Positions 40,164 through 59,359 of a stretch of DNA of 64,000 nt are shown here, in pieces. The notes below the pieces were generated by a model. That model saw nothing but the letters and a program-made list of their open reading frames with translations. It had not been told where the DNA came from and searched no databases. Origin of the DNA: an uncultured Muribaculaceae bacterium (GTDB lineage: Bacteria > Bacillota_I > Bacilli_A > RF39 > UBA660); assembly GCA_964370755.1 (NCBI GenBank), contig CAYJKL010000004.1, positions 1,136 to 65,135 on the forward strand, in the 5' to 3' direction. Positions within the stretch are counted from its first letter, which is position 1. Every line of letters begins with the position of its first letter. Made by a program: the position numbers and the translations under genes.

Positions 40164-40217
40164 ATATAACCTTTATCTTCCCTTATATTCATTATACACA
40201 AATTTTGACAAATAAAA

Positions 40218-41505: not shown

Positions 41506-41545
41506 GGTTTACCTCTTAAATCTATTATACACAATTTTTTACAAG

Positions 41546-42262: not shown

Positions 42263-44397
42263 TATTTTCCTCCTTTCATATTAGTAATTATCATCAATAA
42301 TATTACATTAATCATGTAGTATACACTTTTCCAAGATTTTATTGATGATTCTCCATTTTCTCTAGCGTGCATTTTTACTGCAACTTCTTCTATTTTTAAA
42401 TTATATTTTTTTAATATTATCGGACATATTGGTTCTGGATACTCTATTGGATACTTTTCAGCAAATATTTTTATTACATTCTTATTTGCTGCTCTAAATC
42501 CACTTGTTGGATCTGTTATTGTTTGATTCGATATTAATTTTATAAATTTTGAAATTATTTTTATCCCTACTTGTCTCATAGCAGTTGATTTAAATTCACT
42601 TGAGTTTATATCTACGAATCTTGAGCCAATCACAAAATCGGCGCCTGATTTAATTGGTTTAATTAATTCCTTAACGTAATTAACGTCATGCTGTCCATCT
42701 CCGTCAAATTGTATGGCAACATCATAATTATTTACTAGTGCATACTTATAACCAGTTTGTACTGCTCCTCCAATACCCAAATTATGTATTAGATTAATTG
42801 TATTAAAATTATTTTTCGCACAAATTTCTTTGGTTTTATCTGTTGATCCATCATTTATGATTATATAATCAATATTTTGTTTAGACTTTTCTATACTATT
42901 AATAGTTTTTACAATATTTTCTTCTTCATTATAAGCTGGTATAATTAATAATATTTTCTCTGCTTTTTTTTGTGTTTCCATTTCTTCTTTTGTATTCATT
43001 TTAATTTTTTCAACTTGATTCTTATTTGCTGCTATTATAATCAGTAATAATATTGCCGGGAAACTATATCTGCCATTTAGAACCACTAATAAATTAGATA
43101 ATATGTATCCTACTGTAAACAACTGCAATATTATGAGTTTGTGATTATTATTTTTTATATTTGAGTATACTGCAATTATAGAAAATGATATTATTGCAGT
43201 ATATATTATTAAATTTACATTATTTATTGTTTCGTAATTTTTTTGTACTATTGCTAAGCTCTCTTCGTCAATAATATATGATACATAATCTAGTGATGTG
43301 TTATGCGTAGTCCATAGTGATGTATATTTACAATTCATTAGTTCACTCGTTCCACTAATTCCATAACTTTTGTATCTATTAATTGTTTCATCAATTAAAA
43401 TACTACTTCCATTTTTTTCTTCTAATATCTCAAATGCATATTCAGAATCTTCTACTGTCCAACTTCCACAGTATTCTTTGTTTGCACCAAAATATAGTGA
43501 CCATTCAGTTGCACCTGGTCTAAGTTCCATATCTAATCGATTTTCAATATAAATGTTAATTAAACTACTTGTTATTGTATATGTAAGTATTATAATTACT
43601 AAACTTAGTATTTCTCTTAATTTCTTAATTGTCAAAATATAATAGATTACAAGTGCGATTAATAATATTAACATTATAGGTCTAATATTATTGCTCACTG
43701 CCATTATTATTCCAAGTAATATTATATAAAGTATACTTTTTTTATTCACTTCAAGTGTTTCTAAATTTTTAATTTTTTCTAATATTATTATTGTTAGTAT
43801 TAAAAACAGCATAAATATTGTTTCTGTTGCTACTAAAAAATTTGTAAATATTACTACTGGCATTATGAAATATAAACCACTAAGTAAAGTTCCAACCGGT
43901 TTTGACGTATACTTAATTATAACTTTATAAAGTAACAAGGTTGTTATTATCTGAACAATTACATTCCCAATTATAACTGAACTTACTCCTTTGCCAAATA
44001 GAAATAAAAAGAAGGCGAAAATGTTAGAAACCATTACAACATATCCATTGAATGCTAGATATGCATTATTAAAATTTTCTCCATTTAGTATTGAAATTGC
44101 GGTTTCATAATATAATAAGAAATCTGATTCTAATTCAAAATTTAAATTCAAGAAATAGTAACCTCTGATAATTAAACCTACAATTATAAATGAAATGAGT
44201 ATATATTTACTATTTTTATTGTTTATGAGATTTTTTTTATATAAAAAATAGAATGAGAATATCAGTATTATCACTACTATTCCTTCAATCGAAAAATAGT
44301 TCATATTGAATTTATGTAAATTCAAACCTAATATATATACTAATAATATTAGCAGTATAATTTGTATTACTTTTTTTAGTATATTCATACTATTCAC
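42262..44397 (-). CDS. Fusion protein: N-terminal GT-C-like polytopic domain plus C-terminal GT2 polyprenyl-phosphate glycosyltransferase (GtrB/ArnC/Dpm1-like)
   Basis: Residues 1 to about 455 have at least 12 TM helices, with ELESDFLLYYETA in the first loop. From about residue 475 on: LLIIPAYNEEENI, INDGSTDKT and QFDGDGQH. Confidence 0.75.
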   Translation of the reverse strand: MNSMNILKKVIQIILLILLVYILGLNLHKFNMNYFSIEGIVVIILIFSFYFLYKKNLINNKNSKYILISFIIVGLIIRGYYFLNLNFELESDFLLYYETAISILNGENFNNAYLAFNGYVVMVSNIFAFFLFLFGKGVSSVIIGNVIVQIITTLLLYKVIIKYTSKPVGTLLSGLYFIMPVVIFTNFLVATETIFMLFLILTIIILEKIKNLETLEVNKKSILYIILLGIIMAVSNNIRPIMLILLIALVIYYILTIKKLREILSLVIIILTYTITSSLINIYIENRLDMELRPGATEWSLYFGANKEYCGSWTVEDSEYAFEILEEKNGSSILIDETINRYKSYGISGTSELMNCKYTSLWTTHNTSLDYVSYIIDEESLAIVQKNYETINNVNLIIYTAIISFSIIAVYSNIKNNNHKLIILQLFTVGYILSNLLVVLNGRYSFPAILLLIIIAANKNQVEKIKMNTKEEMETQKKAEKILLIIPAYNEEENIVKTINSIEKSKQNIDYIIINDGSTDKTKEICAKNNFNTINLIHNLGIGGAVQTGYKYALVNNYDVAIQFDGDGQHDVNYVKELIKPIKSGADFVIGSRFVDINSSEFKSTAMRQVGIKIISKFIKLISNQTITDPTSGFRAANKNVIKIFAEKYPIEYPEPICPIILKKYNLKIEEVAVKMHARENGESSIKSWKSVYYMINVILLMIITNMKGGK

Positions 44398-45688
44398 CTT
44401 CCTTTGATTTCAGATAACTTAATATTATTTCGCATTTTTTTAACCATGAGTTTTCATTTGCTTCTTTCTCTAATAGTTTCAAATATTTTTTATCTTTGGT
44501 TAGCTTTAATGCTTCATCTAATTTATCCATAAAATCATCATGATTTTTACCTATTAATACGCTTTCGTGTTTCATACACTCGTGCATAGCTGTTGTTACA
44601 GAAGGTTTTCCTAGGGCCATATATTCATATAACTTTAGAGGCGATGTTGCTTGTGTTATTTCGTTTATCAAAAATGGTATTGTACATACATCAAACTCCT
44701 TAGCATAATAAGGTAATATATTGTAATCAATTGATCCTATAAAGTGAATATTTTTTAGTTCATGAATATTGTGTTTATCATATTCTTCGTCATATTTTAC
44801 TCCAATTAATACAAATTCATAATCTGGTCTTTTTTTAGCGAATTCTTTTAAAAGATCATAATCAAACCAAACGGCAAGTGCTCCATAATAACCGATGATA
44901 GGTTTATTAAGTTTAATTATTTTTTGCATTTCTACACTTAGTTTAGTTTTTTTATTTAAATTTGTAAAATGATTGATATCTACACCATTTGAAGAATAGA
45001 CATATTCATCTCTATATTTTTTTACATCATCCATTATGTTGTCAGCTGTAACCACTACAATACAATTTTCTGTGTCTGACATTGCATAATTATATTTTTC
45101 TTCAACATTTTTTGGAAGTCTTTTAGCGTTTGATATCGCAGGGCTTAAGTCATCTATATAATCATAAATAATTTTATAACCTTTTTTAATATACTGTTTC
45201 ATCTTTTTAACTGTAAGTGATAACTCAGTAGAAAATAGATATATATATTTTGGTTTATCAATTTCATCTATCTTTTTATATAATGCTTTAACAAAATCTT
45301 TACTATACGTGAAATTTATAAGATATAAATTTTTTTCAAGTTTTGAACATAGTTCTATGTTATCTGAAAATATATTAACTTCATATAAGAATAATGTATT
45401 GTTTCTAGCCATTGCTCTAGCTATATGCTGTGGTCTTTGAAATAGTTTTGCATTCCATCCAAAACTATCATTTTTCCATATAACTATTCTATCAAAACTT
45501 TTTTCATTATCAAATATTTTTGCGATTTCTTTATTTATTTTTTCAAAATATTTTTTCCTGTCTTTTTGTTTTTCAATGAACTGACTTATTTTATTTATCA
45601 ATCTTCTTACTTTTCTTTTTATTATAGCAATTGGTTTTAATATTAGATGCCATCTTAAATACTTTAATACTTTAATAATAAATTTCAT
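44390..45688 (-). CDS. Glycosyltransferase with a GT-B C-terminal domain (paralog of 40249..41505)
   Basis: QRPQHI block and SPLKLYEYMALGKPSVTT. Confidence 0.7.
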   Translation of the reverse strand: MKFIIKVLKYLRWHLILKPIAIIKRKVRRLINKISQFIEKQKDRKKYFEKINKEIAKIFDNEKSFDRIVIWKNDSFGWNAKLFQRPQHIARAMARNNTLFLYEVNIFSDNIELCSKLEKNLYLINFTYSKDFVKALYKKIDEIDKPKYIYLFSTELSLTVKKMKQYIKKGYKIIYDYIDDLSPAISNAKRLPKNVEEKYNYAMSDTENCIVVVTADNIMDDVKKYRDEYVYSSNGVDINHFTNLNKKTKLSVEMQKIIKLNKPIIGYYGALAVWFDYDLLKEFAKKRPDYEFVLIGVKYDEEYDKHNIHELKNIHFIGSIDYNILPYYAKEFDVCTIPFLINEITQATSPLKLYEYMALGKPSVTTAMHECMKHESVLIGKNHDDFMDKLDEALKLTKDKKYLKLLEKEANENSWLKKCEIILSYLKSKEGE

Positions 45689-45689
45689 T

Positions 45690-46457
45690 TTATACCTCTT
45701 CTTTCATTATTGTTCGATAGTATTCATCACACACAGTTATATCCCCTATTTTTTTAACTTTACCTTTTTCTAACCAAATAACTTTATCACATATTTTTTT
45801 TACTTGTTCAAGCGAATGAGATACAAACAAAACTGTCGTTCCACCTGTTATCATTTCCATCATTTTGTTTTCACTCTTACTTTGAAATGCTATATCTCCA
45901 ACTGATAAAATTTCATCTACTATTAATATTTCTGGATCTACTATAGTAGCTATTGAAAATGCAAGTCTAGCTATCATTCCCGAAGAGTAATTTTGGACTG
46001 GTACATCTAAAAATTCTTTTAACTCTGAAAATTCTACTATTTCATCAAATTTATTATCGATTAGATCTTTTGAATAACCCATCACTGCCCCATTTAAATA
46101 GATATTTTCACGTGCTGTAAGTTCCATATCGAATCCTGCTCCAAGTTCTATCATAGGACAAATATTACCATATGTTTCCATTTTTCCTTCAGTAGGTTTC
46201 ATAACTCCTGCAATTATTTTTAATAGTGTTGATTTTCCAGCACCATTTGCACCTATGAAACCAACTACTTCGCCACTTTTTATTTCAAAGCTTACATTAT
46301 TAATTGCTTTAAATTCCATTTTTTTCTTTTTTTCTTTTCTCTTAGTAATGTTTACAAACCACTGTTTAAATGAAAATGTTTTTTCTATTCCTAGATTAAA
46401 TTTCATTGTGATTTTTTCCAACTTGATCATTATTTTTTTTTGATTTTCCATATTCAC
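45690..46457 (-). CDS. tagH: Polysaccharide/teichoic acid export ABC transporter ATP-binding protein
   Basis: Walker A GANGAGKST, signature YSSGM and Walker B ILIVDE. Confidence 0.9.
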   Translation of the reverse strand: MNMENQKKIMIKLEKITMKFNLGIEKTFSFKQWFVNITKRKEKKKKMEFKAINNVSFEIKSGEVVGFIGANGAGKSTLLKIIAGVMKPTEGKMETYGNICPMIELGAGFDMELTARENIYLNGAVMGYSKDLIDNKFDEIVEFSELKEFLDVPVQNYSSGMIARLAFSIATIVDPEILIVDEILSVGDIAFQSKSENKMMEMITGGTTVLFVSHSLEQVKKICDKVIWLEKGKVKKIGDITVCDEYYRTIMKEEV

Positions 46458-46459
46458 CT

Positions 46460-47245
46460 CTAAACGTAATATATAAATTTGTCTTGTTTTTTTCTAAAGA
46501 CAAATATACCTATAAATAATGCTATTATTGCTGATAAAAAGCATATTAAAAATTGAAAGCCAGATGGCATATTACCAAAAAGTATTATTTCTCTAGCAAA
46601 ATCTATAAATTGATACAGTGGATTAAATTTCATAAAATCTTGTAGAGGCATTTCTATAATATTAATGTCATACATTATTGGTGTTAAATACATTAAAATT
46701 GTAGTTAATATACCATAAATATAAAACATATCTCTTAAAAACACTGACACAGTTGATAAAATTAAACCTACTCCTAATGTAAATAAAAATAAACATAAGA
46801 ATATAAATGGTAATAACAAATGATATACATTAAGTGAGTGACCTGTTGCTAATATTACTATATAAAGTGGAATTAAAGTTAATATAAAGTTAATTCCTAT
46901 GAAAAGGCATTTTGCCAAAGGGAAAATGTATTTTGGTATATATACTTTGTTAATCAAACTAAAATTACCTACAACTGATCCCATTGCTAGATTAGATGCT
47001 TCTGAAAAATAATTGAAAAAAGTAAGTCCTATTAGTAAATATGTTATATAACTAATGCCTGGTGTAGAAAATTTAAATACATTTGAAAAAACTACTGCCA
47101 TCACACTCATCATTAAAATTGGATACAGTAAACTCCATAATACGCCTAGTACACTTCTTTTATATTTTACTTTAAAATCTCGAATAATTAATTGTTTTAG
47201 TAAAAAGTTATATTTTTGATATGTATATTTTAAGTTTTTAATCAT
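46460..47245 (-). CDS. tagG: ABC-2 type polysaccharide/teichoic acid export permease
   Basis: Six TM helices with an ABC2_membrane-like pattern. I moved the start to MIKNLKY after GAGGAG, which removes the overlap with the upstream gene. Confidence 0.85.
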   Translation of the reverse strand: MIKNLKYTYQKYNFLLKQLIIRDFKVKYKRSVLGVLWSLLYPILMMSVMAVVFSNVFKFSTPGISYITYLLIGLTFFNYFSEASNLAMGSVVGNFSLINKVYIPKYIFPLAKCLFIGINFILTLIPLYIVILATGHSLNVYHLLLPFIFLCLFLFTLGVGLILSTVSVFLRDMFYIYGILTTILMYLTPIMYDINIIEMPLQDFMKFNPLYQFIDFAREIILFGNMPSGFQFLICFLSAIIALFIGIFVFRKKQDKFIYYV

Positions 47246-47270
47246 TGTTATATTACTCCTCATATGTTTA

Positions 47271-48728
47271 TTATACACTATTTTTTCTTTTATTAGCAAG
47301 ATTTCTTTTATTATTACCCTTATTTTCTTCAAATTCTATAAACATAAAAAGACTTACTAATAAAAGTGGCACTAACTGATTAAAAATATTTCCACTTAGA
47401 TACGCTATAAAAAATGTAATCGCACATATTGATGCTTTTATAAAATGATAATATTTATTTGTTTTAAAATATGCAAATGTCATCTTAAAAGTTTGATATA
47501 TATATATTCCTAAAAATAGTATTAACCCAATTATTCCATACGCATAGTACTGAAGAGTTATATCACTTTCTATATTAAATATATTTTGAACTCTAGAGTT
47601 AGTTATACCAAAAAATACATCATTATTATTATCGTTTATTTCTATTACTCTTTTAATCATTTCTGTTTCTAAATATCTATAATTTGTTCTAGAACTTTCG
47701 TCTTGCTGAAGTATTTCATACCAAAAATCAGGGTCGTACTGATATGGGTATCTGTTTATAATAAAATTTGCATTAATTTTTAATTCTTCGTAATTTTCTT
47801 CAATATATTCTTCTTTTGATAATTCTTTTTTTTCTTCCAATTTTTCTTCGTATGCAAGTATATAAGTTGTTTTAGCATTTAACAAATCATAAGTTTCCAC
47901 TCGTCTAATACTTGGGGAATATGGAAGCAGTATTCCGAATAATATCATTAAGCTTATTGTTTTTAAAATATCTTTTTTTGAATAATCAATTTGTTTAGTT
48001 ATCTTATATAAAATGGTAAATATAAAAACTACTATGAAAATTGCAGCCAGTCCGATACTAGATACTCTTGTACCTAACATAAGACTTGCTATAATAATTA
48101 AGATTATATAATTAAAATTTATTTTTTTGTTTATAAAGTAGTAGAAACTTATTACGAATAGTATATTTAATATTAAACATATTTGATTTGCATACATAAA
48201 ATAACCTTTACTAGCTAAGTCTGCATAGTAATAACCATTGCTGAACCATGAAAAAATATTGCCTTTTATTATTTGATCTGCATAACTACTTTCTGATATT
48301 ACAAATATGTTAGTTATTACTATACTACCTGCGACAAATAAAATATAGTATTTTATTAGCTTAATAAAAAACATTTTATTTATTTTTGTGTGTCTAATTA
48401 TGTAGATAAATAATATAGGTACACATAATTTGGCGATTTGCAATATTTCATCATATAAATTGTAATTGAAATTCCCTGGAACTAGAGAATTAAAATTATT
48501 AGAGTTTAAGTGATGAAATATATAATATACTAGCACAATACTAAAATATGCAATAATGTACTTCACATTTTTTCTTGATCCTTTATTTGTATATAATAAC
48601 ATTATAAAAAGCATTACTACTGTTATTAATAATGCTAGTGTAACTATTGAATTATAAAAACTCCCTAATAAAAATATAGGTAAAGTAATAAGTAACATAT
48701 TTAATAATTTTGCATATAGATTATTCAT
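47271..48728 (-). CDS. O-antigen ligase/polymerase-like polytopic membrane protein
   Basis: 485 aa with more than 10 TM helices and a large hydrophilic loop (about residues 290-370). Confidence 0.55.
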   Translation of the reverse strand: MNNLYAKLLNMLLITLPIFLLGSFYNSIVTLALLITVVMLFIMLLYTNKGSRKNVKYIIAYFSIVLVYYIFHHLNSNNFNSLVPGNFNYNLYDEILQIAKLCVPILFIYIIRHTKINKMFFIKLIKYYILFVAGSIVITNIFVISESSYADQIIKGNIFSWFSNGYYYADLASKGYFMYANQICLILNILFVISFYYFINKKINFNYIILIIIASLMLGTRVSSIGLAAIFIVVFIFTILYKITKQIDYSKKDILKTISLMILFGILLPYSPSIRRVETYDLLNAKTTYILAYEEKLEEKKELSKEEYIEENYEELKINANFIINRYPYQYDPDFWYEILQQDESSRTNYRYLETEMIKRVIEINDNNNDVFFGITNSRVQNIFNIESDITLQYYAYGIIGLILFLGIYIYQTFKMTFAYFKTNKYYHFIKASICAITFFIAYLSGNIFNQLVPLLLVSLFMFIEFEENKGNNKRNLANKRKNSV

Positions 48729-48815
48729 AATATACTCTTTTCTTAAAATATTTTATCATATTAGGCATTAAAAATCTATATTTGACATCAAATCTTTTCT
48801 TTAAGATAAATTTAG

Positions 48816-48843
48816 TAAAAAAATAAGCGATTTTTTCGCTTAT
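48816..48843 (-). terminator. Rho-independent terminator
   Basis: ATAAGCGA-AAAAA-TCGCTTAT followed by a T run on the minus strand. Confidence 0.7.
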
Positions 48844-48855
48844 CTTATTTTTTGT

Positions 48856-50535
48856 CTATAGTCCGTAATGTGCTAAACCAAATTTGATTAATTCAATTAT
48901 TCCAGGTATATTTATTGCGATTAATGAAACTATTAATAGGTAATAAATGATTATTTTAAATTTCAATTTATTTTTTAATAACTTTTCTATTAGCATAATT
49001 ATTAGTATTATATACGCCCAGGAAAAGTATAATGAATATAGTATCAAACCATTTTCTGATGTTCCCCAACCAACTAGGCATAACATAACGAAGGAAAATA
49101 TTACCCAAGAAAAACATATTTTACATAATTTTTCTTTATAATTTAAAATAAATGATATTATAACGAGTAGTATTATCCCAACGCCTATATAATTTACTTT
49201 TAAAGAATCTTCTAACTGATATACTATATTTCCGTGTTTGTTTATTTCTATTATTGTATCTAATTTATAAAAACAATTCGCAACAAAATCTGTGAATTGA
49301 TAAAATTTTTCATAAAAATATAATTCTTTTCCTGTATAATGAGTAGTATAAATTGTTAGCAATTGTATTGCATCTAATAATTTTGGTAACTGACCAAATA
49401 TTGATATAGTTGTTATTGTATTAATAAATAAATAAACTAAATTTATTATTTTGTCTTTTAATTTTTTCGAACTAATAGTCAACGGAAATAATATTCCACT
49501 TGTTAATAGTGTACCTGTTGAACAGATATAAAGTTCGTCTTTATTTTTCTTATCTTTTATATATGCATTAATTAACATTATTAGCCAAAAAAATGCTATT
49601 ATGTATTGCTCTATATTTAACACAAATAGTAAAAATGGATAAGATACAAAGAATATAAATAAAAATATTTTTTTAGTAAGATTATCAAAATTTAGTAATT
49701 TACTTAAGGTTACTGCGCTAAATATTAATAACATACAATGTAAGATTGCCGTTGTAATAAAATATATATTTGGTACAAACGGTAATGTATTTGACACTGC
49801 TTTTACAAAAACTGTAAACGGTAGCGCTATTATACCAAATAAAGGTTGTCTTAAATCATTTTCATGGGCATTTACATAATAATATGTGTCTGTGTATAGT
49901 AAAAAACCTGTGTCTGTTGTATATACAACATCATAAGGAATACTATTGCCATAATCGTCTACTGGTTGATAAAATACTGTTGTGTTATTATAAATAATTA
50001 TAATTAATATAGATATTATAATTGTCATAATTATAAATAGTTTTTTTTCTTTTTTTTCGAATCCAACAAAATCTTCAATTATATCTCTTATAATTTTTGT
50101 GTAGAAAAAGTTCGTTGCTACATATACTGCGAAAAAAGAAAGCAGTGTAAATAATTCTAAAAATAGTAATGCTCGATCTACTGAAAAGTTAAAATTATGG
50201 ATATTATCATTAATAAAAGTTTGTACAAAAATGTTATCTATATAATTTTGCGAAACTGCGTAAGTAAGTAGAACTGACCATAGTAGAACTGGATAGTTTA
50301 TTCCTTTTTCAAATATTTTTTTCAAAAAGTTCTTTTTAAACGCTAAATAACAAACTGTAATTAGAGATATAACTAAAGTTACAAAAGTATATAAATACGG
50401 CAGCTTATACCCTATAAGTGAAAATGTTAAAATTAGTCCTGATAATATAAATATTACTTCAAGAACTGTGGTTTTTGATAGTTTAATAACTATACTATCA
50501 ACTTTATCTCTTAATTTTTTTATTATAGTTTTCAT
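48856..50535 (-). CDS. Large polytopic membrane protein, GT-C-like candidate glycosyltransferase
   Basis: About 14 TM helices. One loop contains VDDYGNSIPYD...HENDLRQPLFG. I moved the start to MKTIIKK after AGGGAGG. Confidence 0.55.
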   Translation of the reverse strand: MKTIIKKLRDKVDSIVIKLSKTTVLEVIFILSGLILTFSLIGYKLPYLYTFVTLVISLITVCYLAFKKNFLKKIFEKGINYPVLLWSVLLTYAVSQNYIDNIFVQTFINDNIHNFNFSVDRALLFLELFTLLSFFAVYVATNFFYTKIIRDIIEDFVGFEKKEKKLFIIMTIIISILIIIIYNNTTVFYQPVDDYGNSIPYDVVYTTDTGFLLYTDTYYYVNAHENDLRQPLFGIIALPFTVFVKAVSNTLPFVPNIYFITTAILHCMLLIFSAVTLSKLLNFDNLTKKIFLFIFFVSYPFLLFVLNIEQYIIAFFWLIMLINAYIKDKKNKDELYICSTGTLLTSGILFPLTISSKKLKDKIINLVYLFINTITTISIFGQLPKLLDAIQLLTIYTTHYTGKELYFYEKFYQFTDFVANCFYKLDTIIEINKHGNIVYQLEDSLKVNYIGVGIILLVIISFILNYKEKLCKICFSWVIFSFVMLCLVGWGTSENGLILYSLYFSWAYIILIIMLIEKLLKNKLKFKIIIYYLLIVSLIAINIPGIIELIKFGLAHYGL

Positions 50536-51505
50536 AAATACCTCCCTTGAATGCATAGTTTTTCATTAGTAAGAAAGTAACTGGAACACCGAGAGCTACT
50601 GCTATTATATAGGAATATACTTCACTGATTCCAATAATATTATAAAATAAAAACACTACAATATTTTGAATTAAAAAATTAGGGATATATGATATTACAA
50701 ATTTTATAAATTTTTTAGTTGAATAATTAGTTTTGAATGTAATACTTGTATTTAAAATATAAGATATTATTAAACTTGTGATATATCCTAATATGAAACT
50801 AATATTAGCATTACTAATTATGTTGGAATATAAAATTGCAAATAATACTCCATTTATTGCATTTATTCCACCTACAAATAAAAATTTTAAAAATTCTTTA
50901 TTTATAAATTGTTTTTGTGTTTTTTGCATTAGTGAACTTCTATTATACTCCCAGTCACTTATATCATTCCCCTCCACGATAAAAGATTTTTTCGCTAACT
51001 TGGCCAATGGTTCATCTGAATATGAATCAGAGTAAAATTCATTTATTTTTGCATTTGGATATGCAATCTTAAACCTAAATACTTTTTCTTTGCCATAACA
51101 ATTTAACCCTGTATACGTACCTGTTTTCATATCTACTATAGACGCTAACACATTGTTTACACCAAGCCTTTTCATCATTGGCTTTACTAAAAATTCTGGA
51201 GAAGCTGATATGATAATATCACTTTCTTTTGTTTGCTTTAAATAATATTCTAAAATATTTTTTTCCTTAGCATCCCAAAATTTTTCAACTAGTTTTTTTG
51301 TGTTTCTACTCTTAGTTAGAAATACATAAAACTTTTCTTTGAATTCAGTTTTTGTATATATTTTAAATATATACTTTATAAAGGCAATACCTTGTTTTGG
51401 AAGGCATAGTAATATTTTTGGGTTATTTTTTATACAAAAAAAATAAAAATCCTTTGTTGAATCATTTTTATAGATTGTTTTATCAAAATCATATACATTA
51501 ATCAT
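50504..51505 (-). CDS. HAD phosphatase::GtrA-like flippase fusion protein
   Basis: N-terminal YDFDKT (DxDxT) with a HAD-IB-like body. The C-terminal 130 aa form a 4-TM GtrA-like domain (FLKFLFVGGINAINGVLF). Confidence 0.75.
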   Translation of the reverse strand: MINVYDFDKTIYKNDSTKDFYFFCIKNNPKILLCLPKQGIAFIKYIFKIYTKTEFKEKFYVFLTKSRNTKKLVEKFWDAKEKNILEYYLKQTKESDIIISASPEFLVKPMMKRLGVNNVLASIVDMKTGTYTGLNCYGKEKVFRFKIAYPNAKINEFYSDSYSDEPLAKLAKKSFIVEGNDISDWEYNRSSLMQKTQKQFINKEFLKFLFVGGINAINGVLFAILYSNIISNANISFILGYITSLIISYILNTSITFKTNYSTKKFIKFVISYIPNFLIQNIVVFLFYNIIGISEVYSYIIAVALGVPVTFLLMKNYAFKGGIYENYNKKIKR

Positions 51506-52566
51506 TTTAACTCCTTAAACTTTTCTGTGAAAGCAAACATATTTCCTATAATTGATGATAATATAATTGATATTATACAACATATTATAAAAAATAGAAT
51601 TTCAATTATTATATTATCATTTAGCATTGCATCTAAATTAAGTGTATACATTATAAATACAAATACTAGTGGATGAAATAAGTATATCACAAATACATTA
51701 TTTTTATATGAACTTATTAAATTTTTAGTTAACTTTTTATGCGATAAATATTCTATAAGATTATTAATTTTATCGGAAAGTAAATATATTAATACCATAC
51801 TTGAACATGAGTATAAGAAAAAAATCATATTTGGTGGAAATTTGTTATTTTGCATAATCAGACTTATTCCTGTTGCGCTAGAAAAAATTAGTATTAATAT
51901 TATAAAAACCGTAACTAATTTTAATACGCTTCTTGCGGATATTTTTTGTTTACTATGACTATTATAAAATAAACCCAGGTATGTAAAAAATATATAAAAT
52001 ATTATATTTATAAGTATGTCATTTACAAATATACCTTTTATATTTAGTAAAGTGCTTAACATTATTAGACCTGTTGTTATATAAAATATTATATATTTTG
52101 TTTTTATATTATTTTTAAGTTTTTTTAATAATGGTATCATTAACATTATTCCGATATATACTGGTATAAACCATAATGCGTATGTTAGATAAGGAACATT
52201 TGATATTGAATATTGACTAGGTAATATCCAGCTTGTTATAAAATAAAAGTTGTTTTCTATTTCTAATCCATAGTATTCATTCCAGATTAAGTTTATTATC
52301 ATTGCAGCGTGAGAATAAACAATAATTGGTACTGCAATTCTTAGCATTTTATTTTTAAGATATAAAGAGTATTTTTTTGTACTTGATAATGAATTTGAAG
52401 CACCAGTTAGATAAAAAAATAACGACATTTCTATTAGGAGTAATGATTTAATAACCATACCTAGTTCATCCACAAATACTGGTATCCAAAATAAGCAATG
52501 AATAAATATAACATGCATTATTGCAAATGTTCTTAAATTGTCTATTTTATTATCTCTTAACTTCAT
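51502..52566 (-). CDS. Acyltransferase_3 family membrane O-acyltransferase
   Basis: N-terminal DNLRTFAIMHVIFIHC and about 10 TM helices. Confidence 0.8.
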   Translation of the reverse strand: MKLRDNKIDNLRTFAIMHVIFIHCLFWIPVFVDELGMVIKSLLLIEMSLFFYLTGASNSLSSTKKYSLYLKNKMLRIAVPIIVYSHAAMIINLIWNEYYGLEIENNFYFITSWILPSQYSISNVPYLTYALWFIPVYIGIMLMIPLLKKLKNNIKTKYIIFYITTGLIMLSTLLNIKGIFVNDILINIIFYIFFTYLGLFYNSHSKQKISARSVLKLVTVFIILILIFSSATGISLIMQNNKFPPNMIFFLYSCSSMVLIYLLSDKINNLIEYLSHKKLTKNLISSYKNNVFVIYLFHPLVFVFIMYTLNLDAMLNDNIIIEILFFIICCIISIILSSIIGNMFAFTEKFKELK

Positions 52567-52580
52567 TTTTCCCCCTGGTA

Positions 52581-53450
52581 TCAGAAATAAATTAAAAATA
52601 TTAATATCCCTGAAAATAGCGTTGATAATAGTAGTAGGCCTTTATCTTTAAATAACACCTCTACTGGATCTCCATCTGAGTCTCCTTCTACTTGTAAACT
52701 GTACTTCATACATATTAGAATTAGTATTGGTACACTGTAAATTAAATTATTTGAACCTATCGCCTTTATTGTATTTTGATCTATTGTCCATAATGTATAA
52801 AATGCTATAGATAGTGTAAGATTCATATACATATTTTTATCTAAAAAATCTTTGTTGTAATGTTTTAATACATCTCTTACTTTGTCTGATTTATTAACTC
52901 TTATTAATTCATTTCTTCTTTTTCCTAAACCTAGGTAAAATGCAAATGTAATTACTGTAAGATAAAGCCAATTTGATATTTCAATATTTGTTATCATCGA
53001 ACCAAATAATATTCTAAATATAAAACCTGATACTAAAATTGCAACATCAACTATAGGTATATTTTTTAGGCCAAAACTATAAGCTATATTAAATATAAAA
53101 TATGAACTAATAATTATATACGGATATATATTGCTTTTCGATGCTATAGCTGCAACTACTAGCGCTGATATAAATAAAATTGAACCTAATATACATGCTT
53201 TTTTTACTGAAACACTTCCATTTGCTATAGGTCTATTTTTTTTAGTTGGATGTTTACTATCTTTTTCTTTATCTCTAATATCATTTATTATGTATACAAC
53301 TGATGAAATTAAACTAAATGAAATAAATCCTAGAAAACCAATTTTTAATATTTCTATATTAGTTATATTTCCACTGAATATTATCGGCAGTAGTATTAAT
53401 AAATTTTTTATATAGTGCTTTATTCTCATTAACTTCAAATATTTTTTCAT
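52581..53450 (-). CDS. UbiA-family prenyl-phosphate phosphoribosyltransferase-like (DPPR synthase-like)
   Basis: NDIRDKEKDSKHPTKKNRPIANG motif and 8-9 TM helices. I moved the start to MKKYLK after GTGAGGA. Confidence 0.78.
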   Translation of the reverse strand: MKKYLKLMRIKHYIKNLLILLPIIFSGNITNIEILKIGFLGFISFSLISSVVYIINDIRDKEKDSKHPTKKNRPIANGSVSVKKACILGSILFISALVVAAIASKSNIYPYIIISSYFIFNIAYSFGLKNIPIVDVAILVSGFIFRILFGSMITNIEISNWLYLTVITFAFYLGLGKRRNELIRVNKSDKVRDVLKHYNKDFLDKNMYMNLTLSIAFYTLWTIDQNTIKAIGSNNLIYSVPILILICMKYSLQVEGDSDGDPVEVLFKDKGLLLLSTLFSGILIFLIYF

Positions 53451-53523
53451 TACAAAAATCCTCACTTTACTTGTTAATTATAACAAATTTTCTATTATTG
53501 TCAAAATATAGTTAGGCTTTATT

Positions 53524-53552
53524 AAAAAAAAATACGACTTAAAAATCGTATT
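53524..53552 (-). terminator. Terminator after the cohesin-protein gene
   Basis: AATACGA-TTTTTAAG-TCGTATT followed by T9 on the minus strand. It overlaps the stop codon. Confidence 0.65.
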
Positions 53553-54933
53553 CATCTTTCTTCTTTTTCTTTTTTTCTTTTTTTACTTTTTCTTTTTTAG
53601 GTTTACTATCTTTATTATTTTCTTTTTCTTCACCATCAAAAGAATGTTTTTTTGAAGTTTTTTTGTTTTTTCTCATAAGTCCGAATATTATAATAAATAA
53701 AAGTATTATGAAACCAGATAGACCCATGATTACATAAAGATACAATTCTTTATCGTCATTTACTTCGTCTACGTTTTGAGCATCATAAGCAATTACTGAT
53801 TCATTTTTACTATCATATGTGTAAAAACCTTCTTCTCCAGTTATTACACTTTTTCCATATACTACCCAAAACTCTGAATTTGCTTCTAGTTTTAAAACTT
53901 CCGCACTGTTACCAAAAATTGTTTCTGTGTATTTAGTATATCCATCAAGTGTCTTAGTAGTTTCTATTGGAACTATCATTAATCCATTAAATTTATATTC
54001 GATATACTTTGTGTAAGTGTTTTTACTTTCATCATAGATATAAAGTTCTACTAACCCTTCATCATCTTTAAGACCTACTAAAGTGTAACTTAGTTTATCG
54101 TTAGTGTATGTCGGTATTTCAAACTCACCCATTACTAGTGTTGACTCAACAAAGTTAGTAGGTGCTACTAGTTGCTCACGAAGTTTAACAACTGTTTTAT
54201 TATCACCTTCTACTGTTACTGGTATTGGATTTTGATCTATTACATTTACTGTTAATTTATAAACTCTTTCAGAACCATTTTGTGCCCGAACAGTTATATC
54301 AAAATTATTTATACCAGGTGTTACTGCAAGAGTACCTGCACCTTCTACTGAAGACCTTGAGTCATTTACACTTGCTCCTATGTTTATCTCTTTTGTTCCT
54401 TCAGGAACTTCTACTGTGTACTCTGATGTATCTTTATCAAATGCTGGTGATATTTCATAACCTTCTACAGTTAATCCTTTTAAATAATTATCTTTTGAAT
54501 AACTTGCTTCTATTTCAGCTTGAGTTTTTACTGTAATTGTTCTTGATGATGAACTTATTTGCATTTCACTCATATCATTTGCTATTACTTGATAACTATT
54601 TACTGCTAAATTTGTGCTCCCTGTTTTAAGTGTTTTAAATTTAAAAGTATAATCTTTATATGTAATACCTGCACTTGAATTTGCCATTCTAGTTCCACCA
54701 GCTTCTGCTGATGATGAAGTAAGTTGTAAGACACTTGGATCATATGATAAATCCATTATCCATGACCCTATTGCAGTACTACTTGATAACTTTACCGTTA
54801 CTGTTACCGTGTTTCCCTTTACAACCGTCGTGGCATTTGACGAAACACTAATACTTCCTGATGCGGCACTTACTATATTTGGAAATATTACTCCTGCTAT
54901 TAAAAGTAATAATAAATATTTTATTTTTCTCAT
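53539..54933 (-). CDS. Membrane-anchored surface protein: cohesin-like domain, cadherin-like beta-sandwich and a C-terminal TM with a Lys-rich tail
   Basis: Signal peptide ...NIVSA/AS. Cohesin-like GNTVTVTVKLSSSTAIGSWIMDLSYDPSVLQL. Cadherin-like YLKGLTVEGYEISPAFDKDTSEYTVEV. TM segment LYLYVIMGLSGFIILLFIIIFGL. Confidence 0.7.
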   Translation of the reverse strand: MRKIKYLLLLLIAGVIFPNIVSAASGSISVSSNATTVVKGNTVTVTVKLSSSTAIGSWIMDLSYDPSVLQLTSSSAEAGGTRMANSSAGITYKDYTFKFKTLKTGSTNLAVNSYQVIANDMSEMQISSSSRTITVKTQAEIEASYSKDNYLKGLTVEGYEISPAFDKDTSEYTVEVPEGTKEINIGASVNDSRSSVEGAGTLAVTPGINNFDITVRAQNGSERVYKLTVNVIDQNPIPVTVEGDNKTVVKLREQLVAPTNFVESTLVMGEFEIPTYTNDKLSYTLVGLKDDEGLVELYIYDESKNTYTKYIEYKFNGLMIVPIETTKTLDGYTKYTETIFGNSAEVLKLEANSEFWVVYGKSVITGEEGFYTYDSKNESVIAYDAQNVDEVNDDKELYLYVIMGLSGFIILLFIIIFGLMRKNKKTSKKHSFDGEEKENNKDSKPKKEKVKKEKKKKKKDEYDF

Positions 54934-54948
54934 TTTATTCCTTTCTTT

Positions 54949-56652
54949 TTATTGAACTATTGTATATGTTCCTAAGATGTTTTTTTGAACTTGTAATAAG
55001 TCAAAAGCATCTATTACTCCATCTTTTGTTGGATCTGCTGCTTTAGAGTAAACATCTACTAAACTATATGTTCCTAAAATACTTTTTTGTACTTGAAGTA
55101 AGTCTAGGGCATCTATATTTCCATCACCTGATGTATCTCCATATATTACTACTGATAAAACTTCTGTTCCAGCTTCTGATTTAATTGATATTTTATCTCC
55201 TGTTGCTAACTTTCCAGTTGTTTTTACATTTTCATTTTTATCCATAATTACTACGTTACCATGACCAGCAGCACCTTCAAGAGTACCTTTCATTGTTTCT
55301 GCTGTTGTTTCTGGAACTACTTTTGATATTGTTGTTGATGTATAGTCAAATCCACTTGATACTACTAGAGTACTTACTGGCATTTCAGATAAATCGTTAT
55401 CTGGATTTTCTCCAGTTGCTCCAGAGCCAGTATTGTCAATAATTGTGTCCATGTTATTGTAAACTGGAATCTTGAACATGTATGCATTATTTAAGAAGTT
55501 TGTATCTCTATAATTAGCATAAACTGTCTTAGCTTCACTCATCGGAGCTTGTATATTTGTCATGTACTGATTTAAATATAACTTATTTGCACTAGTAGGA
55601 ACTACATTAAACTTTTGTAAGTATGTTGTGTACTGTCCTACTGATATATATTTTGTTGCTAAGAAGTTAGAACCTCCTTGAAGTGCTTCATCTACTGAGT
55701 CCCATCCATAATTTCTAGCGTATGTTAGACCACAGTATGTTGTACCATTTTGTTTTACACAATCATCTGATACTCCTATGTTGTAAAAATTGTAAAGTCC
55801 ATAATATCCATCTGTTACTCCACTGTAAAGATTGTAAAGTGATGTTCCAGAACCTAATTCTTGTCTTATTCTTGACGCTAAGAAAGTTGGATTAACATCC
55901 GTACTTTTCCCTGCATTTAATACCATATTTGTAAAATCTAAGCCTTTTCCAGTATGATATGTGTAAAAAGATGCTCCCGAGAATATCGATGATATAACAT
56001 GCGTGTACTGACTTTCAAGTGATGCTTCGTATTTTAAGTATTCGAACTGAAATATAAAGTTTTCTCCTAAGAAGTTTCTTGGGTCTAAATAGTATGCTAC
56101 AGCCTCTTTTGTAGGTGGCTCCCATCCTGAATATCCATAACTACATGTTGAATCTATATAATTTGTATTACTTGTATAAAATAAACTAATACCGCAGTTA
56201 CTTTCTGCTTGCACAGCTGATGCCCATTCTAGATTTGTTGGAATTGCTTCGAATTGCCAGTTTGGGTGCTGCTCTTTAATAAAGCATAAATACGGAATAT
56301 AACTGCTTGGAAATCCTGCATTTTTCATATCTACTTCGCACTGTGTACTACCAGTTGCGTCTCCATAATTTATATACGGAATTGCATAGTTTGCAGATAC
56401 ATATCCTATTTTTCCAGTAGCTGGATCTTTTACTTTCCACCAATTACCTTCATATTTTGTTGTATCTACTAAATCAAGTATTGCATCAGCATAAAAGGTT
56501 TCTGAATAACTTGACCAACCATATGGACTTGAATGTAAATCTGCCCATCCATTAATATCTACTATTCTAACGTGATAAGTTTTTGCAAAGACATCAGAAG
56601 CTAATATGAAATATAAACATAATAAAAATACTAAATATACTACTTTTTTCAT
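54949..56652 (-). CDS. Secreted SH3b, glucosaminidase-like (GH73/LytD-type) protein with a C-terminal type I dockerin
   Basis: Signal peptide. SH3b-like WWKVKDPATGKIGYVSANY. AYYLDPRNFL and NPTFLASRIRQELG blocks. Two dockerin repeats, DTSGDGNIDALDLLQVQKSILG and DPTKDGVIDAFDLLQVQKNILG (54952-55143). Confidence 0.8.
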   Translation of the reverse strand: MKKVVYLVFLLCLYFILASDVFAKTYHVRIVDINGWADLHSSPYGWSSYSETFYADAILDLVDTTKYEGNWWKVKDPATGKIGYVSANYAIPYINYGDATGSTQCEVDMKNAGFPSSYIPYLCFIKEQHPNWQFEAIPTNLEWASAVQAESNCGISLFYTSNTNYIDSTCSYGYSGWEPPTKEAVAYYLDPRNFLGENFIFQFEYLKYEASLESQYTHVISSIFSGASFYTYHTGKGLDFTNMVLNAGKSTDVNPTFLASRIRQELGSGTSLYNLYSGVTDGYYGLYNFYNIGVSDDCVKQNGTTYCGLTYARNYGWDSVDEALQGGSNFLATKYISVGQYTTYLQKFNVVPTSANKLYLNQYMTNIQAPMSEAKTVYANYRDTNFLNNAYMFKIPVYNNMDTIIDNTGSGATGENPDNDLSEMPVSTLVVSSGFDYTSTTISKVVPETTAETMKGTLEGAAGHGNVVIMDKNENVKTTGKLATGDKISIKSEAGTEVLSVVIYGDTSGDGNIDALDLLQVQKSILGTYSLVDVYSKAADPTKDGVIDAFDLLQVQKNILGTYTIVQ

Positions 56653-56791
56653 ATAGCCTCCAATCATACTATATCATTATAACATTTTTTGTCGAATATT
56701 TGGTGATAAATTTATGAAAATTTTAACTTTTTGTAAAACAACCCTAGTTTTTTTTTAATCTTTATAATATAATTAAGTTGGTGAGAGATAT

Positions 56792-57400
56792 ATGCTTGGA
56801 AATAGTTATGATAAAATTGATTTTGTTTTTATATCATTAATAACACTTTATTTAGTTGTTTTACTAATATTAGTTTTATTTTTATTGATGAGACCAAGCA
56901 AGAAAGATGACAACAAAAATATAGAAGAAATTAATAAAATTAAAAATATTAAGAAGGTTAGAACTAAAGAATTTAAGATGCCAACTTTTGAATTACCTAA
57001 ACTTAATAGACCTGTTTGGCTAGATAAATTTATTTTACTTATGAAAGAACCTATTATTAAGAAGGTTGTTGTTAGCGAAACAAAAAAAGTTGCTTCTGCT
57101 AGCGTAATTATTAGTCCCGATAATATAAATACTAATAATGTTGAACCTAAAGTTAAAACTAACGCTAAAAACAAAGAGGAAAATACTGTTAAAAATAAAG
57201 AAGAAATTACGAAAAAGAAAACTTCGAAAATTAGTAATGCTACTAAAAATAAAACTACTTCTACTAAAAAACCAAGTAGTACTAAAAAAGCTTCTGCTAC
57301 TAAAAAAACAACTAATACTACAGTTAAAACTACCACTAAGAAAAAACCAACTAGAAAGAAAACTCCTAAAACTTATCATAAAAACAAAAAGAAAAAGTAA
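56792..57400 (+). CDS. Membrane-anchored Lys/Thr/Asn-rich low-complexity protein
   Basis: RBS GGTGAGAG, an N-terminal TM helix and an extremely basic KKT/TKK-rich tail. Both antisense frames are also open, so the strand call rests on the RBS and TM helix. Confidence 0.45.
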   Translation: MLGNSYDKIDFVFISLITLYLVVLLILVLFLLMRPSKKDDNKNIEEINKIKNIKKVRTKEFKMPTFELPKLNRPVWLDKFILLMKEPIIKKVVVSETKKVASASVIISPDNINTNNVEPKVKTNAKNKEENTVKNKEEITKKKTSKISNATKNKTTSTKKPSSTKKASATKKTTNTTVKTTTKKKPTRKKTPKTYHKNKKKK

Positions 57401-57427: not shown

Positions 57428-59359
57428 TTATTCTGTAACCATATCATTTACATTCGGATCTACTTCATCATCAGTTGGTTTTTGGTCCTCTTCTTCGTCT
57501 TCTTCTGGTTCCTCTTCAATAATTTCTCCATTTATGTAAAAGTCTATACTTTTAAATGTACCTATTAACTGATTTATATGAATACTTTGGTCACCAATTA
57601 AATTACTATCCACTGAACTATTATACTCATCTTGTGTTGAATCAACGGTTATAAAGTCACAACTTAAATTATAGTCATTACAAAAGTCTTGTGCTTTTGA
57701 TTTAGATAGACCAATGAAACTTGGCATAACTTCGTACGTTCTGTCTTTAGTGTATCCAGAACCAGCTATAGTTGTTTCGTAAACTTCGTTTCCTGAAAAA
57801 CTAAATGTCTTGATGTTTTCATGTGTTTCAAGTTCTAAATTTATTTTCATCATTTTTATAATATTATCAAGTGAGTCTTGATAATACCCAAGTGATTCTG
57901 CTTCTCTACCACTTGAAGGTAAATAAACTCTTAAGTTGTAGTACTCTAAGTAACTTTTTTCGATATTAATTAGTTCTTCCCCTGCTAGTGAGTTTAGTAA
58001 AGCGTCTTTCATTACTTCATAACCCGATAACATTTGCTCTGGACTCATATTTGTTATGATATTATCTGATACTGTATTTAATACTTTTTCAAAATCACTA
58101 AAACTATTTAATGTTGTTACTTTATTTGCTATAGCTGTAACCACTTCTTGTTGATGTCTATTTCTATCTATATCTGATAACATATATAAATTTCTATTTC
58201 TAGCATATGCAAGCGCTTGTTCTCCGTTAAGTGTTTGATATCCAGTATCCATACATATTAAATGTACACCTGTGTATCTATCTGAATTTTGCTCACATAC
58301 TTGTCCATCATACGTATCATAGTCAGGTTCTTCAACATTTACATTTACTCCACCCAGTGCATCTACTAGTTCTACAACACCTTTAAAGTTTATTTTTATA
58401 TAATAATCTACATCTACATCTGTAAGTTTTTCTACTGTTTCAATAACACATTCTGTTCCATACGCTGCAGATGAATTAATTTTAGAAACACTATTATTAT
58501 TACATGTAATAGGTACTAAAATATCTCTTGGCATACTAAACATTGTTGCATTAAGAGTCGTTGGATTAAACGTAATAAGCATTAAAGTATCCCCATTAAA
58601 TGCTGCATTTGCATCAAGTCCATCTTCTGCTGAATCTACACCCATTATTAAGAATGTTAATGGTTCATCAAAATCTTTAGTAGCAACTATAGTTTTATCC
58701 GTATTTTCCATTTTTTCTTTATATGAATATAACACTATAGTATCTGCTGCTATATTTTCAAAACCTTCTTCACTACCTAATAATGAAACATAATTACTTT
58801 GCATGAATGCACCATCAATTTCACCACTATATAGATCATCTAACATCATTATATAACTATCGTATTTTACTATTTCATTTGTAAGCGATTCTTCAGTCAT
58901 TATTTTTTTTGCTAAAGTATAACCTTCTATATCACTAGTATTAGTAATCATACCAATTTTACTATCTTCTGTTAAATTTCCATCAGTTAAAGTAACTAGA
59001 TATGATGTATACTCTACTTCATCTCTTTCTCCAAAACCAGAAATTCCTTCATATATTGCATCTATATAAAAACTTCCAACTCCTAAAAAAATTGATGATA
59101 TAGTTATCATAACCGCACTTACTACAAATCTTTTATATTTTCTTTTAACTATTCTTGATGCACTCATTATAAAATAGTGAACTGCACTTCCAAATAAAAG
59201 TGCTATACCAATATACCTAAAAAGAGTTTCTACACCTTCTAAACTTAGTAAACTTCTAGTAAAAAGTATAAAGGTCACTAAGTACGCAATTAATGTAACT
59301 GCATATATTACTAGATATATTTTTTTTCTGCGAGCTAGTTTTCTTATTATACTTTTCAT
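57428..59359 (-). CDS. LytR-CpsA-Psr (LCP) family glycopolymer ligase with a C-terminal PASTA-like module and acidic tail
   Basis: N-terminal TM helices. LCP core FLIMGVDS...GDTLMLITFNP...SMPRD. Tail EEEPEEDEEEDQ. Confidence 0.85.
   Translation of the reverse strand: MKSIIRKLARRKKIYLVIYAVTLIAYLVTFILFTRSLLSLEGVETLFRYIGIALLFGSAVHYFIMSASRIVKRKYKRFVVSAVMITISSIFLGVGSFYIDAIYEGISGFGERDEVEYTSYLVTLTDGNLTEDSKIGMITNTSDIEGYTLAKKIMTEESLTNEIVKYDSYIMMLDDLYSGEIDGAFMQSNYVSLLGSEEGFENIAADTIVLYSYKEKMENTDKTIVATKDFDEPLTFLIMGVDSAEDGLDANAAFNGDTLMLITFNPTTLNATMFSMPRDILVPITCNNNSVSKINSSAAYGTECVIETVEKLTDVDVDYYIKINFKGVVELVDALGGVNVNVEEPDYDTYDGQVCEQNSDRYTGVHLICMDTGYQTLNGEQALAYARNRNLYMLSDIDRNRHQQEVVTAIANKVTTLNSFSDFEKVLNTVSDNIITNMSPEQMLSGYEVMKDALLNSLAGEELINIEKSYLEYYNLRVYLPSSGREAESLGYYQDSLDNIIKMMKINLELETHENIKTFSFSGNEVYETTIAGSGYTKDRTYEVMPSFIGLSKSKAQDFCNDYNLSCDFITVDSTQDEYNSSVDSNLIGDQSIHINQLIGTFKSIDFYINGEIIEEEPEEDEEEDQKPTDDEVDPNVNDMVTE

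Follow-up and report, generated by a model that had tools for sequence, protein, structure and literature searches.

The subject of this analysis is a pair of adjacent genes in a 64-kb stretch of contig CAYJKL010000004.1 (the window, meaning the whole of the DNA that was analysed). Both open reading frames (ORFs) lie on the minus strand, to which the coordinates given below refer unless stated otherwise. Gene 1 (54949..56652; ORF, ribosome-binding site (RBS) and homologues) is predicted to encode a secreted GH73-type peptidoglycan hydrolase of 567 amino acids (aa) with a C-terminal dockerin, and gene 2 (53539..54933; ORF, alignment of 73 homologues and AlphaFold model) a type I membrane protein of 464 aa with a single cohesin. 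The two genes probably form a dedicated operon which leashes a peptidoglycan glucosaminidase to the cytoplasmic membrane of its own producer. Pairs of cohesin and dockerin are familiar above all from cellulosomes, which they glue together, and the non-cellulosomal pairs that have been catalogued are rarely assigned a function. The pair described here suggests that the coupling device of the cellulosome also holds a wall enzyme on the cell's own membrane, and it offers a clear and testable job, the positioning of a peptidoglycan hydrolase on the membrane of the producer. A wall hydrolase tethered via cohesin and dockerin was already the interpretation of the initial annotation, and it is supported as far as sequence analysis goes. 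The ORF list confirms both genes at the positions and on the strand given there, and the peptides quoted at that time (YYLDPRNFL, NPTFLASRIRQELG, both dockerin repeats and TVTVTVKLSSSTAIGSWIMDLSYDPSVLQL) are all present.

By sequence and predicted structure the C-terminus of the hydrolase is unambiguously a type I dockerin (aa 504-567, 54952..55143), which consists of the two 22-residue Ca-loop/helix repeats DTSGDGNIDALDLLQVQKSILG and DPTKDGVIDAFDLLQVQKNILG. The Pfam family Dockerin_1 (PF00404) matches aa 504-560 over the complete profile (positions 1-57 of 57) with 44.8 bits against a cut-off of 22.9 (E 1.5e-11). The solved dockerins 2ccl_B and 2vn6_B were matched by phmmer in the PDB, and the Foldseek comparison with 2ccl_B gives a TM-score of 0.90 at a root-mean-square deviation of 1.1 A and 35% identity, in agreement with the duplicated Ca-binding segment which had been recognised at this end of the protein. 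The Ca ligands at loop positions 1, 3, 5 and 12 are D506/S508/D510/D517 in the first and D540/T542/D544/D551 in the second repeat, and most of them are invariant in 66 homologues. The helices of the two repeats comprise residues 515-526 and 549-560 in the AlphaFold model.

The putative partner is a cohesin module at aa 24-136 of the gene 2 product (54526..54864), which is indicated by Pfam, phmmer, Foldseek and the co-divergence described below. The hidden Markov model (HMM) of the Pfam family Cohesin (PF00963) scores 25.6 bits against a cut-off of 24.1, a hit above the cut-off though marginal, and roughly half of the homologues listed carry the family as a precomputed assignment. With phmmer the module matches the ScaB cohesin 3l8q (E 1.6e-4). 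The AlphaFold model of the whole protein has a mean predicted local distance difference test (pLDDT) score of 85, with values above 90 in the cohesin region, for which the best single-domain structural matches are solved cohesins. Foldseek found 2w1n with an E of 3.9e-8, and TM-scores of 0.69 for 2vo8, 0.63-0.65 for 2jh2, 0.60 for 6kgf and 0.51 for 1qzn. The cohesin-like module of the initial annotation is thus backed both by a family profile above its cut-off and by solved structures.

The catalytic region of the hydrolase (aa 96-400, 55453..56367) qualifies as a GH73-type N-acetylglucosaminidase by sequence and by the fold of the model, and the earlier call of a LytD/GH73-like enzyme can be kept. 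Residues 238-399 match the NCBIfam model of SagB with an E of 1.2e-13, at a score of 50.9 that stays far under the cut-off of 425. Among the PDB sequences phmmer retrieved 6fxp (E 6e-10), 4pi7 (1e-9), 5wqw (2e-9) and 6fxo (1e-8) as well as 6u0o; the solved GH73 enzymes matched in this way are SagB, AtlE, Atl and Acp of C. perfringens, and the Foldseek TM-scores to such enzymes range from 0.64 to 0.73. In the HMMER alignment Glu265 (within RIRQELG) falls on the Glu of the SagB motif LLETG, and it is invariant in 66/66 sequences of the hydrolase family. We take this residue to be the GH73 catalytic acid, which lies in the helix motif ..LE[ST]G...

The hydrolase starts with a signal peptide of the cleavable type (aa 1-23, 56584..56652; read from the sequence), with a hydrophobic helix at aa 2-16 in the model and a presumed cleavage site between ...SDVFA and KTY, and no transmembrane (TM) helix was found in the protein. 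An SH3b-like domain follows (aa 24-95, 56368..56583). It gives only weak Pfam SH3_1/SH3_3 matches in this copy, despite which the earlier assignment holds: the region resembles the bacterial SH3b domains 9ovi, 2krs and 4krt in Foldseek, and PF08239 is precomputed in most homologues. Between the GH73 region, which is followed by a short linker of low confidence in the model, and the dockerin lies a small alpha/beta domain without known family (aa 426-503, 55144..55377; AlphaFold pLDDT 72-95). It matched no Pfam family and is conserved as far as Vescimonas (see below); possibly it serves as an X-module-like support for the dockerin. A protein identical to the hydrolase (P0121) is present in a public collection.

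Homologues of both proteins number hundreds to thousands and show the same architectures. A species scan with one genome per species revealed a relative of the cohesin protein in 152 species, and across these matches the gene is single-copy and core-like. The 80 loci which were kept belong to metagenome-assembled genomes of uncultured gut 'Bacilli', 'Tenericutes' or 'Mollicutes', to Ca. Onthocola and Ca. Caccenecus, and to Clostridium sp. CAG:609; the named genera such as Ca. Onthocola and Ca. Caccenecus are placed in the Bacilli incertae sedis by the NCBI taxonomy. In 79/81 loci the cohesin gene is directly preceded, on the same strand, by the dockerin-hydrolase gene. At the remaining two the contig stops at the cohesin gene, so that adjacency is found in 79/79 informative cases. 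The gap between the two genes measures 8-20 nt in 68/73 related loci. All 81 loci contain a single cohesin ORF and, wherever the sequence extends that far, a single dockerin ORF, and the 64-kb window likewise encodes one dockerin, one cohesin and no others.

Outside the Bacilli the same pair, with the genes 10 nt apart, is found in the cultured Vescimonas fastidiosa MM35 (Oscillospiraceae, Clostridia). Its protein WP_212821509.1, annotated as 'dockerin type I domain-containing protein', is 29% identical to the hydrolase of the window, and WP_212821511.1, a 'cadherin-like beta sandwich domain-containing protein', is 27% identical to the cohesin protein, in both cases near full length. For Ruminococcus bicirculans a lone cohesin and a dockerin associated with a GH73 enzyme were reported (Wegmann et al. 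2014, as cited in Ze et al. 2015, PMC4611034). Because the pair is present in the fellow Oscillospiraceae V. fastidiosa, the genes of R. bicirculans probably belong to the same gene-pair family. Starting from the Vescimonas protein, a search for homologues yielded near-identical Vescimonas-like sequences only and did not reach R. bicirculans. In a profile search against 1.8 billion representatives the result was dominated by cadherin-like repeats of giant proteins, with thousands of repeat proteins matching through the PF12733 module of the cohesin protein, and many full-length clusters at 50% identity exist in addition. No paper giving a function for a GH73-dockerin/membrane-cohesin pair came up in a literature search, and no functional, structural or comparative analysis of the R. 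bicirculans pair was found in the searchable literature. Seen from these homologues, the pair is widespread, functionally uncharacterised and not unique to the window, and hence less singular than first implied.

Within the hydrolase the dockerin is the most conserved part. The mean pairwise identity amounts to 72% for the dockerin and to 79-85% for its loop-helix segments, compared with 54-59% for the catalytic domain and 36% for SH3b; the dockerin helices are nearly invariant and exceed even the catalytic core. Co-divergence was analysed with domain-wise distance matrices of 75 pairs of hydrolase and cohesin protein. The distances of dockerin and cohesin correlate with r 0.64, the highest value for the dockerin, which reaches only r 0.39-0.49 with the domains of its own hydrolase. 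Likewise the cohesin correlates with its own cadherin-like and third domains with r 0.46 and r 0.42, respectively. After the other five domains were regressed out (partial Mantel), a partial r of 0.48 remained between dockerin and cohesin, which was reached by 0/2000 label permutations and which stayed at 0.42-0.47 without the eight most divergent dockerins or without near-duplicates. The partial correlation of the dockerin with the cadherin-like or the third domain is about 0. The most divergent dockerin (locus L078) adjoins one of the most divergent cohesins. The two modules appear to co-diverge specifically. Together with the conservation of the dockerin and the recognition residues described next, this points indirectly to an interaction of the two modules, as a correlation and not as a contact.

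The predicted recognition residues of the dockerin (positions 10, 11, 17 and 18) are A-L/Q-K in both repeats of 57/75 sequences. Variants tend to be changed in both repeats (AI/AI, ALVK/ALVK, ALHK/ALHK, IR..QQ/IR..QQ), as would be expected if both faces of the dockerin fit one partner, and a dual mode of binding can be inferred from this pattern. Divergent members differ at these residues, with I-R...Q-Q in L078 and K-T/N-R types in locus L083.

These observations also bear on the question whether the cohesin protein could be a general surface-display anchor, that is a membrane scaffoldin for several dockerin proteins encoded elsewhere, with the GH73 hydrolase merely its adjacent client. The anchoring scaffoldins of cellulosomes and of the R. 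bromii amylosome do work in this way (PMC4611034). However, the single cohesin of each protein and the single dockerin of each of 81 loci, the strict pairing with a single hydrolase family across Bacilli and Clostridia, and a co-divergence that is specific to the dockerin and cohesin modules make such a role unlikely. For R. bicirculans, too, no more than one dockerin and one cohesin are reported, each of them in association with a GH73 (PMC4611034).

Several points weigh against a leash made of cohesin and dockerin. The PF00963 match of the cohesin module is marginal and covers profile positions 7-95 only (89 of 139). Among the Pfam families that the initial annotation had proposed for the hydrolase, Dockerin_1 was confirmed (44.8 bits) and SH3 was weak, whereas Glucosaminidase (PF01832) gave no match at E up to 10, neither with the whole hydrolase nor with the isolated region. 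The hydrolase family has YMTN where many GH73 enzymes have YATD, which concerns activity and specificity. Residue-level covariation between dockerin and cohesin is uninformative because both modules are so conserved, and the top mutual-information pairs are driven by few rare variants. Finally, a mirror-tree correlation can reflect shared rate variation instead of contact.

Some of this would suit an explanation in which the two modules do not touch at all: the dockerin would be a Ca-dependent stabiliser or a binder of wall polymers, the cohesin-like fold an Ig-like part of a stalk, and the two genes would be linked by some other function. The marginal HMM score and the many Ig-like folds which the Foldseek list of the cohesin module also holds agree with it, and non-cellulosomal dockerins without known partners are reportedly common, as Peer et al. 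are said to have noted in 2009. On the other hand, solved cohesins head the single-domain matches, the dockerin helices are nearly invariant to a degree above the catalytic core, and the divergence of the dockerin follows the cohesin and not the neighbouring stalk domains. We regard the absence of a cohesin-dockerin contact as very improbable.

The remainder of the cohesin protein provides the predicted anchor. Its signal peptide comprises aa 1-23 (54865..54933; read from the sequence), with a likely cleavage between ...IVSA and ASG, and the motif A23/A24/S25 is invariant or nearly so in the homologue alignment. Behind the cohesin follows a cadherin-like beta-sandwich (aa 145-232, 54238..54501), as annotated initially; Pfam PF12733 matches aa 154-230 with 35 bits against a cut-off of 24.2 (E 2e-8). 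The next part had been taken for a long spacer, but it turned out to be a well-predicted and conserved beta-rich domain close to the membrane (aa 235-385, 53779..54231; pLDDT about 90). This third domain of ~150 aa belongs to no known family, is common to Bacilli and Vescimonas, and contains the conserved motifs LVGLKD and YG.N..TGE.GFY.YD. It had no Pfam match and no sequence relative in the PDB (best E 0.09, for a GH97 fragment that was taken as a chance hit), and on sequence and model it is a candidate for a new domain family. An internal duplication, suspected by eye, was not supported by BLASTP (E 0.08, out of register).

A TM helix, LYLYVIMGLSGFIILLFIIIFGLM, occupies aa 397-420 (53674..53745) within a model helix of residues 385-422. 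It is directly followed by RKNKK, and the orientation of the helix was inferred by the positive-inside rule. The Lys-rich cytoplasmic tail (aa 421-464, 53542..53673) consists to 45% of Lys and Arg and is disordered, with a pLDDT below 50; among the homologues it varies in length and sequence (39% identity). Helix and poly-Lys tail had both been recognised before. In the topology predicted from sequence and model, a single-pass membrane anchor would display the cohesin on the extracellular side, and the hydrolase would be secreted. In L083 the tail of the cohesin protein is acidic and not Lys-rich.

Taken as a leash, the pair might function as follows. Both the hydrolase and the cohesin protein would be exported by Sec. 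The cohesin protein would be kept in the membrane by its C-terminal helix and form a stalk out of the third domain and the cadherin-like domain, with the cohesin at its tip. The C-terminal Ca-binding dockerin of the hydrolase would then plug into this cohesin, presumably in a Ca-dependent manner, and the SH3b-GH73 part would be held within about one stalk length of the membrane, probably in the order of 10-15 nm. In this way the enzyme could be positioned in the zone of wall insertion and wall-polymer attachment, and as a putative glucosaminidase it would cut glycan strands of the producer's own wall, be it for growth, strand trimming or daughter-cell separation.

A membrane partner could also hold the hydrolase inactive or off the wall until a signal, such as a change in Ca2+ or proteolysis, releases it, and would then be a switch of autolysis. 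Wall hydrolases are commonly controlled by membrane partners, for example in SagB-SpdC (bioRxiv 10.1101/2020.05.21.109470) and in LytH and its partner (PMC9245657), and the conserved third domain and the variable charged tail are without assigned role. Such a sequestration is nevertheless improbable, given that Pfam scans of both proteins found no signal-sensing or protease domain and that conservation of the disordered cytoplasmic tail is low (39% identity).

The gene neighbourhood bears on the target of the tethered enzyme. Upstream of the pair the window encodes LtaS, a 202-aa protein and an LCP ligase, and downstream a UbiA-type prenyltransferase, an acyltransferase, a GtrA-HAD protein, O-antigen-ligase-like proteins and TagGH-, TagA- and TagO-like proteins. 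The location beside wall-polymer and LCP/LtaS genes, as already described in the initial annotation, is correct, and dozens of related loci likewise have a TagO-like gene and the LtaS/LCP block on the flanks of the pair. Since genes for a LysM protein and a SEDS polymerase are also present in the window, the organism is walled. Because of this envelope-gene context and the conserved housekeeping synteny, a self-directed autolysin is favoured over a weapon against neighbours.

For a hydrolase that lyses neighbours, or that harvests muropeptides from the environment, one can cite the SH3b-plus-hydrolase architectures known from bacteriolysins and endolysins (Foldseek 4krt), and the prediction that related reduced-genome Bacilli need scavenged muropeptides (PMC10868615). 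The operon, however, contains no immunity gene, it occupies a conserved housekeeping site with LtaS/LCP on one side and wall-polymer genes on the other, and the gene is single-copy and core-like over the 152 species matches. A short membrane leash would moreover be expected to confine the enzyme inside the wall of its producer. We give a weapon or a foraging enzyme a low probability.

The leash on the producer's own wall would fit what has been described for some gut Bacilli. The uncultured orders RFN20, RF39 and ML615J-28 are reported to have lost most lyt/cwl hydrolases, and RFN20 and ML615J-28 to be without sortases (PMC10868615). If the window comes from one of these orders, it would make sense that a hydrolase, as one of few still present, is leashed to the membrane. 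A more far-reaching idea, which we put forward tentatively and hold for rather doubtful, is that the cohesin-dockerin lock has a widespread and unstudied housekeeping role in Firmicute wall biology, with the stalk as a spatial ruler. The stalk of cohesin, cadherin-like domain, candidate new domain and TM helix would hold one dedicated GH73 enzyme at a fixed height above the membrane, and this height would set where glycan strands get cut. It would represent a core autolysin arrangement in reduced-genome gut Bacilli that are reported to be short of classical lyt/cwl hydrolases and partly of sortases. The pair may even be an ancestral, pre-cellulosomal use of cohesin and dockerin.

Judged from its sequences, the pair is a variant of the known non-cellulosomal cohesin-dockerin systems. 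The structures nearest to its cohesin are those of secreted glycoside hydrolases of C. perfringens (GH84C, GH33; 2w1n, 2jh2, 2vo8), where cohesin and dockerin also pair outside plant-fibre degradation and between proteins of one organism. In C. perfringens the cohesins are part of secreted, soluble enzymes and couple toxins or glycosidases with one another, whereas in the window the one cohesin sits at the end of a non-catalytic stalk with a membrane anchor, and its client is a peptidoglycan hydrolase. With the scaffoldins of cellulosomes and amylosomes (C. thermocellum 2ccl, R. bromii Sca) the pair shares the sequence and fold of a type I-like duplicated dockerin and the logic of an enzyme-borne dockerin and a cell-bound cohesin. 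It differs from them by its single cohesin, the missing carbohydrate-binding module (CBM), a single client gene within the operon, a TM-helix anchor instead of S-layer homology (SLH) domains or sortase, and the bacterial wall instead of dietary polysaccharide as its likely substrate. A cellulosome or amylosome proper was considered and rejected, as there is no CBM, the 64-kb window contains no further cohesins or dockerins, and no fibre-degrading enzymes lie nearby.

The closest solved relative of the catalytic domain in both sequence and fold is SagB of the S. aureus SagB-SpdC complex (6u0o, 6fxp), a GH73 glucosaminidase which is held at the membrane together with a membrane partner and acts on nascent glycan strands. 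SagB has an N-terminal TM helix of its own, and its partner SpdC is polytopic and CAAX-protease-like; the hydrolase of the window has a cleavable signal peptide, and its presumed link, via cohesin and dockerin, is to a protein that passes the membrane once. The pair falls outside the SagB-SpdC group because the hydrolase has no TM anchor of its own, an SpdC-like partner is missing and the NCBIfam score is 50.9 against 425. A SagB-like role is proposed by analogy only, because Atl and AtlE score nearly as well.

Should the leash prove true, it would add a new way of anchoring autolysins and controlling them in space to LysM, SH3b and choline-binding modules, TM anchors and FtsEX-type control, and give a handle on the wall biology of poorly understood gut lineages with reduced genomes. 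For protein engineering, it would furnish a cohesin-dockerin pair that is orthogonal by nature, matches one to one and comes in lineage-specific variants of specificity. The breadth of the family, the one-to-one specificity, the putative new stalk domain and the cultured carrier are directly accessible to tests, and the mechanism itself is unsurprising given the domains.

The two ORFs share the reading frame and are separated by a spacer of 15 nt (54934..54948) and not of 16 nt as initially counted, with an SD-like (Shine-Dalgarno) AAGGA at 54939-54943. The hydrolase starts at ATG 56652, which is preceded by GGAGG at 56657-56661 and at whose position the homologues begin with MKK. Upstream of gene 1 a promoter-like site, TCGACA-16-TATAGT with TG, and the RBS were located by consensus scan and from the sequence (56657..56695); as promoter-like sites are no more numerous in the region than in shuffles, this promoter call is weak evidence. 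The terminator reported behind the pair corresponds to a terminator-like hairpin that overlaps the stop codon of gene 2 and is followed by a T-run (53522..53559; RNA fold, dG -10.9 kcal/mol, z -3.6). It was not picked up by a simple terminator scan because its stem is AT-rich. Past the hairpin a perfect sigma-70 consensus promoter, TTGACA-16-TATAAT at 53504..53477, is found for the next gene. With this hairpin and this promoter the pair looks like a transcription unit of its own.

An origin of the hydrolase from a phage endolysin was rejected, as staphylococcal phage lysins match the GH73 core only, with ~30% identity. A gut contig of higher GC, deposited under the title 'UNVERIFIED: Bacteriophage sp.', encodes the pair as well. 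Two records of that title, MT836697.1 (L083) and MT839502.1, carry the GH73-dockerin/cohesin pair, and MT836697.1 further encodes a ClpC-like ATPase, a GT2 and a YfhO-like membrane protein. Because of the pair and these genes both records are probably bacterial fragments and not phage. The two 'Bacteriophage sp.' records, which match over the full length, are unannotated gut contigs with bacterial housekeeping genes and also speak against the endolysin origin. In L078 (4729-8281) and L083 (5878-9298) the hydrolase contains an extra cadherin-like module between the GH73 region and the pre-dockerin domain. The window is low in GC and of Bacilli type, and its closest relatives (L002-L006, L018 and other CAYJ.../CAZ... 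records) are metagenome-assembled genomes titled 'uncultured Muribaculaceae bacterium' (Bacteroidota), a label which looks wrong for these contigs.

The genes downstream of the pair form part of a wall-glycopolymer cluster of ~18 kb (35900-53500, minus strand) with two O-antigen-ligase-like genes, several glycosyltransferases, TagO/TagA/TagGH-like genes and the acyltransferase, GtrA-HAD and UbiA genes. Its GC content is 0.22-0.25, whereas the cohesin/dockerin pair has 0.32. The cohesin gene is directly followed by the TagO-like gene in many relatives, and part of the cluster therefore looks like a variable insertion. On the other side the 202-aa ORF (56792-57400, plus strand) is divergent from the hydrolase gene and encodes an N-terminal hydrophobic helix followed by a Lys/Thr-rich region of low complexity. 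It belongs to no Pfam family and has no tblastn match over more than 50% of its length at E<=1e-8 in any related locus. The LCP-family ligase (57428-59359, minus strand) begins with a long membrane/extracellular region and ends in an acidic tail; its PASTA-like stretch at aa 544-593 is weak and remains below the cut-off.

Farther away, the window encodes Tad/Flp-like pilus genes (491-8743, minus strand), among them a T2SSE ATPase (2199-3317) and an RcpC/CpaB-like protein (3340-4131). An ORF of 1149 aa beside them (4573-8022) gave no Pfam match. A protein with a VWA domain (16580-18586, minus strand) combines an N-terminal pilin methylation motif with a Listeria-Bacteroides repeat.

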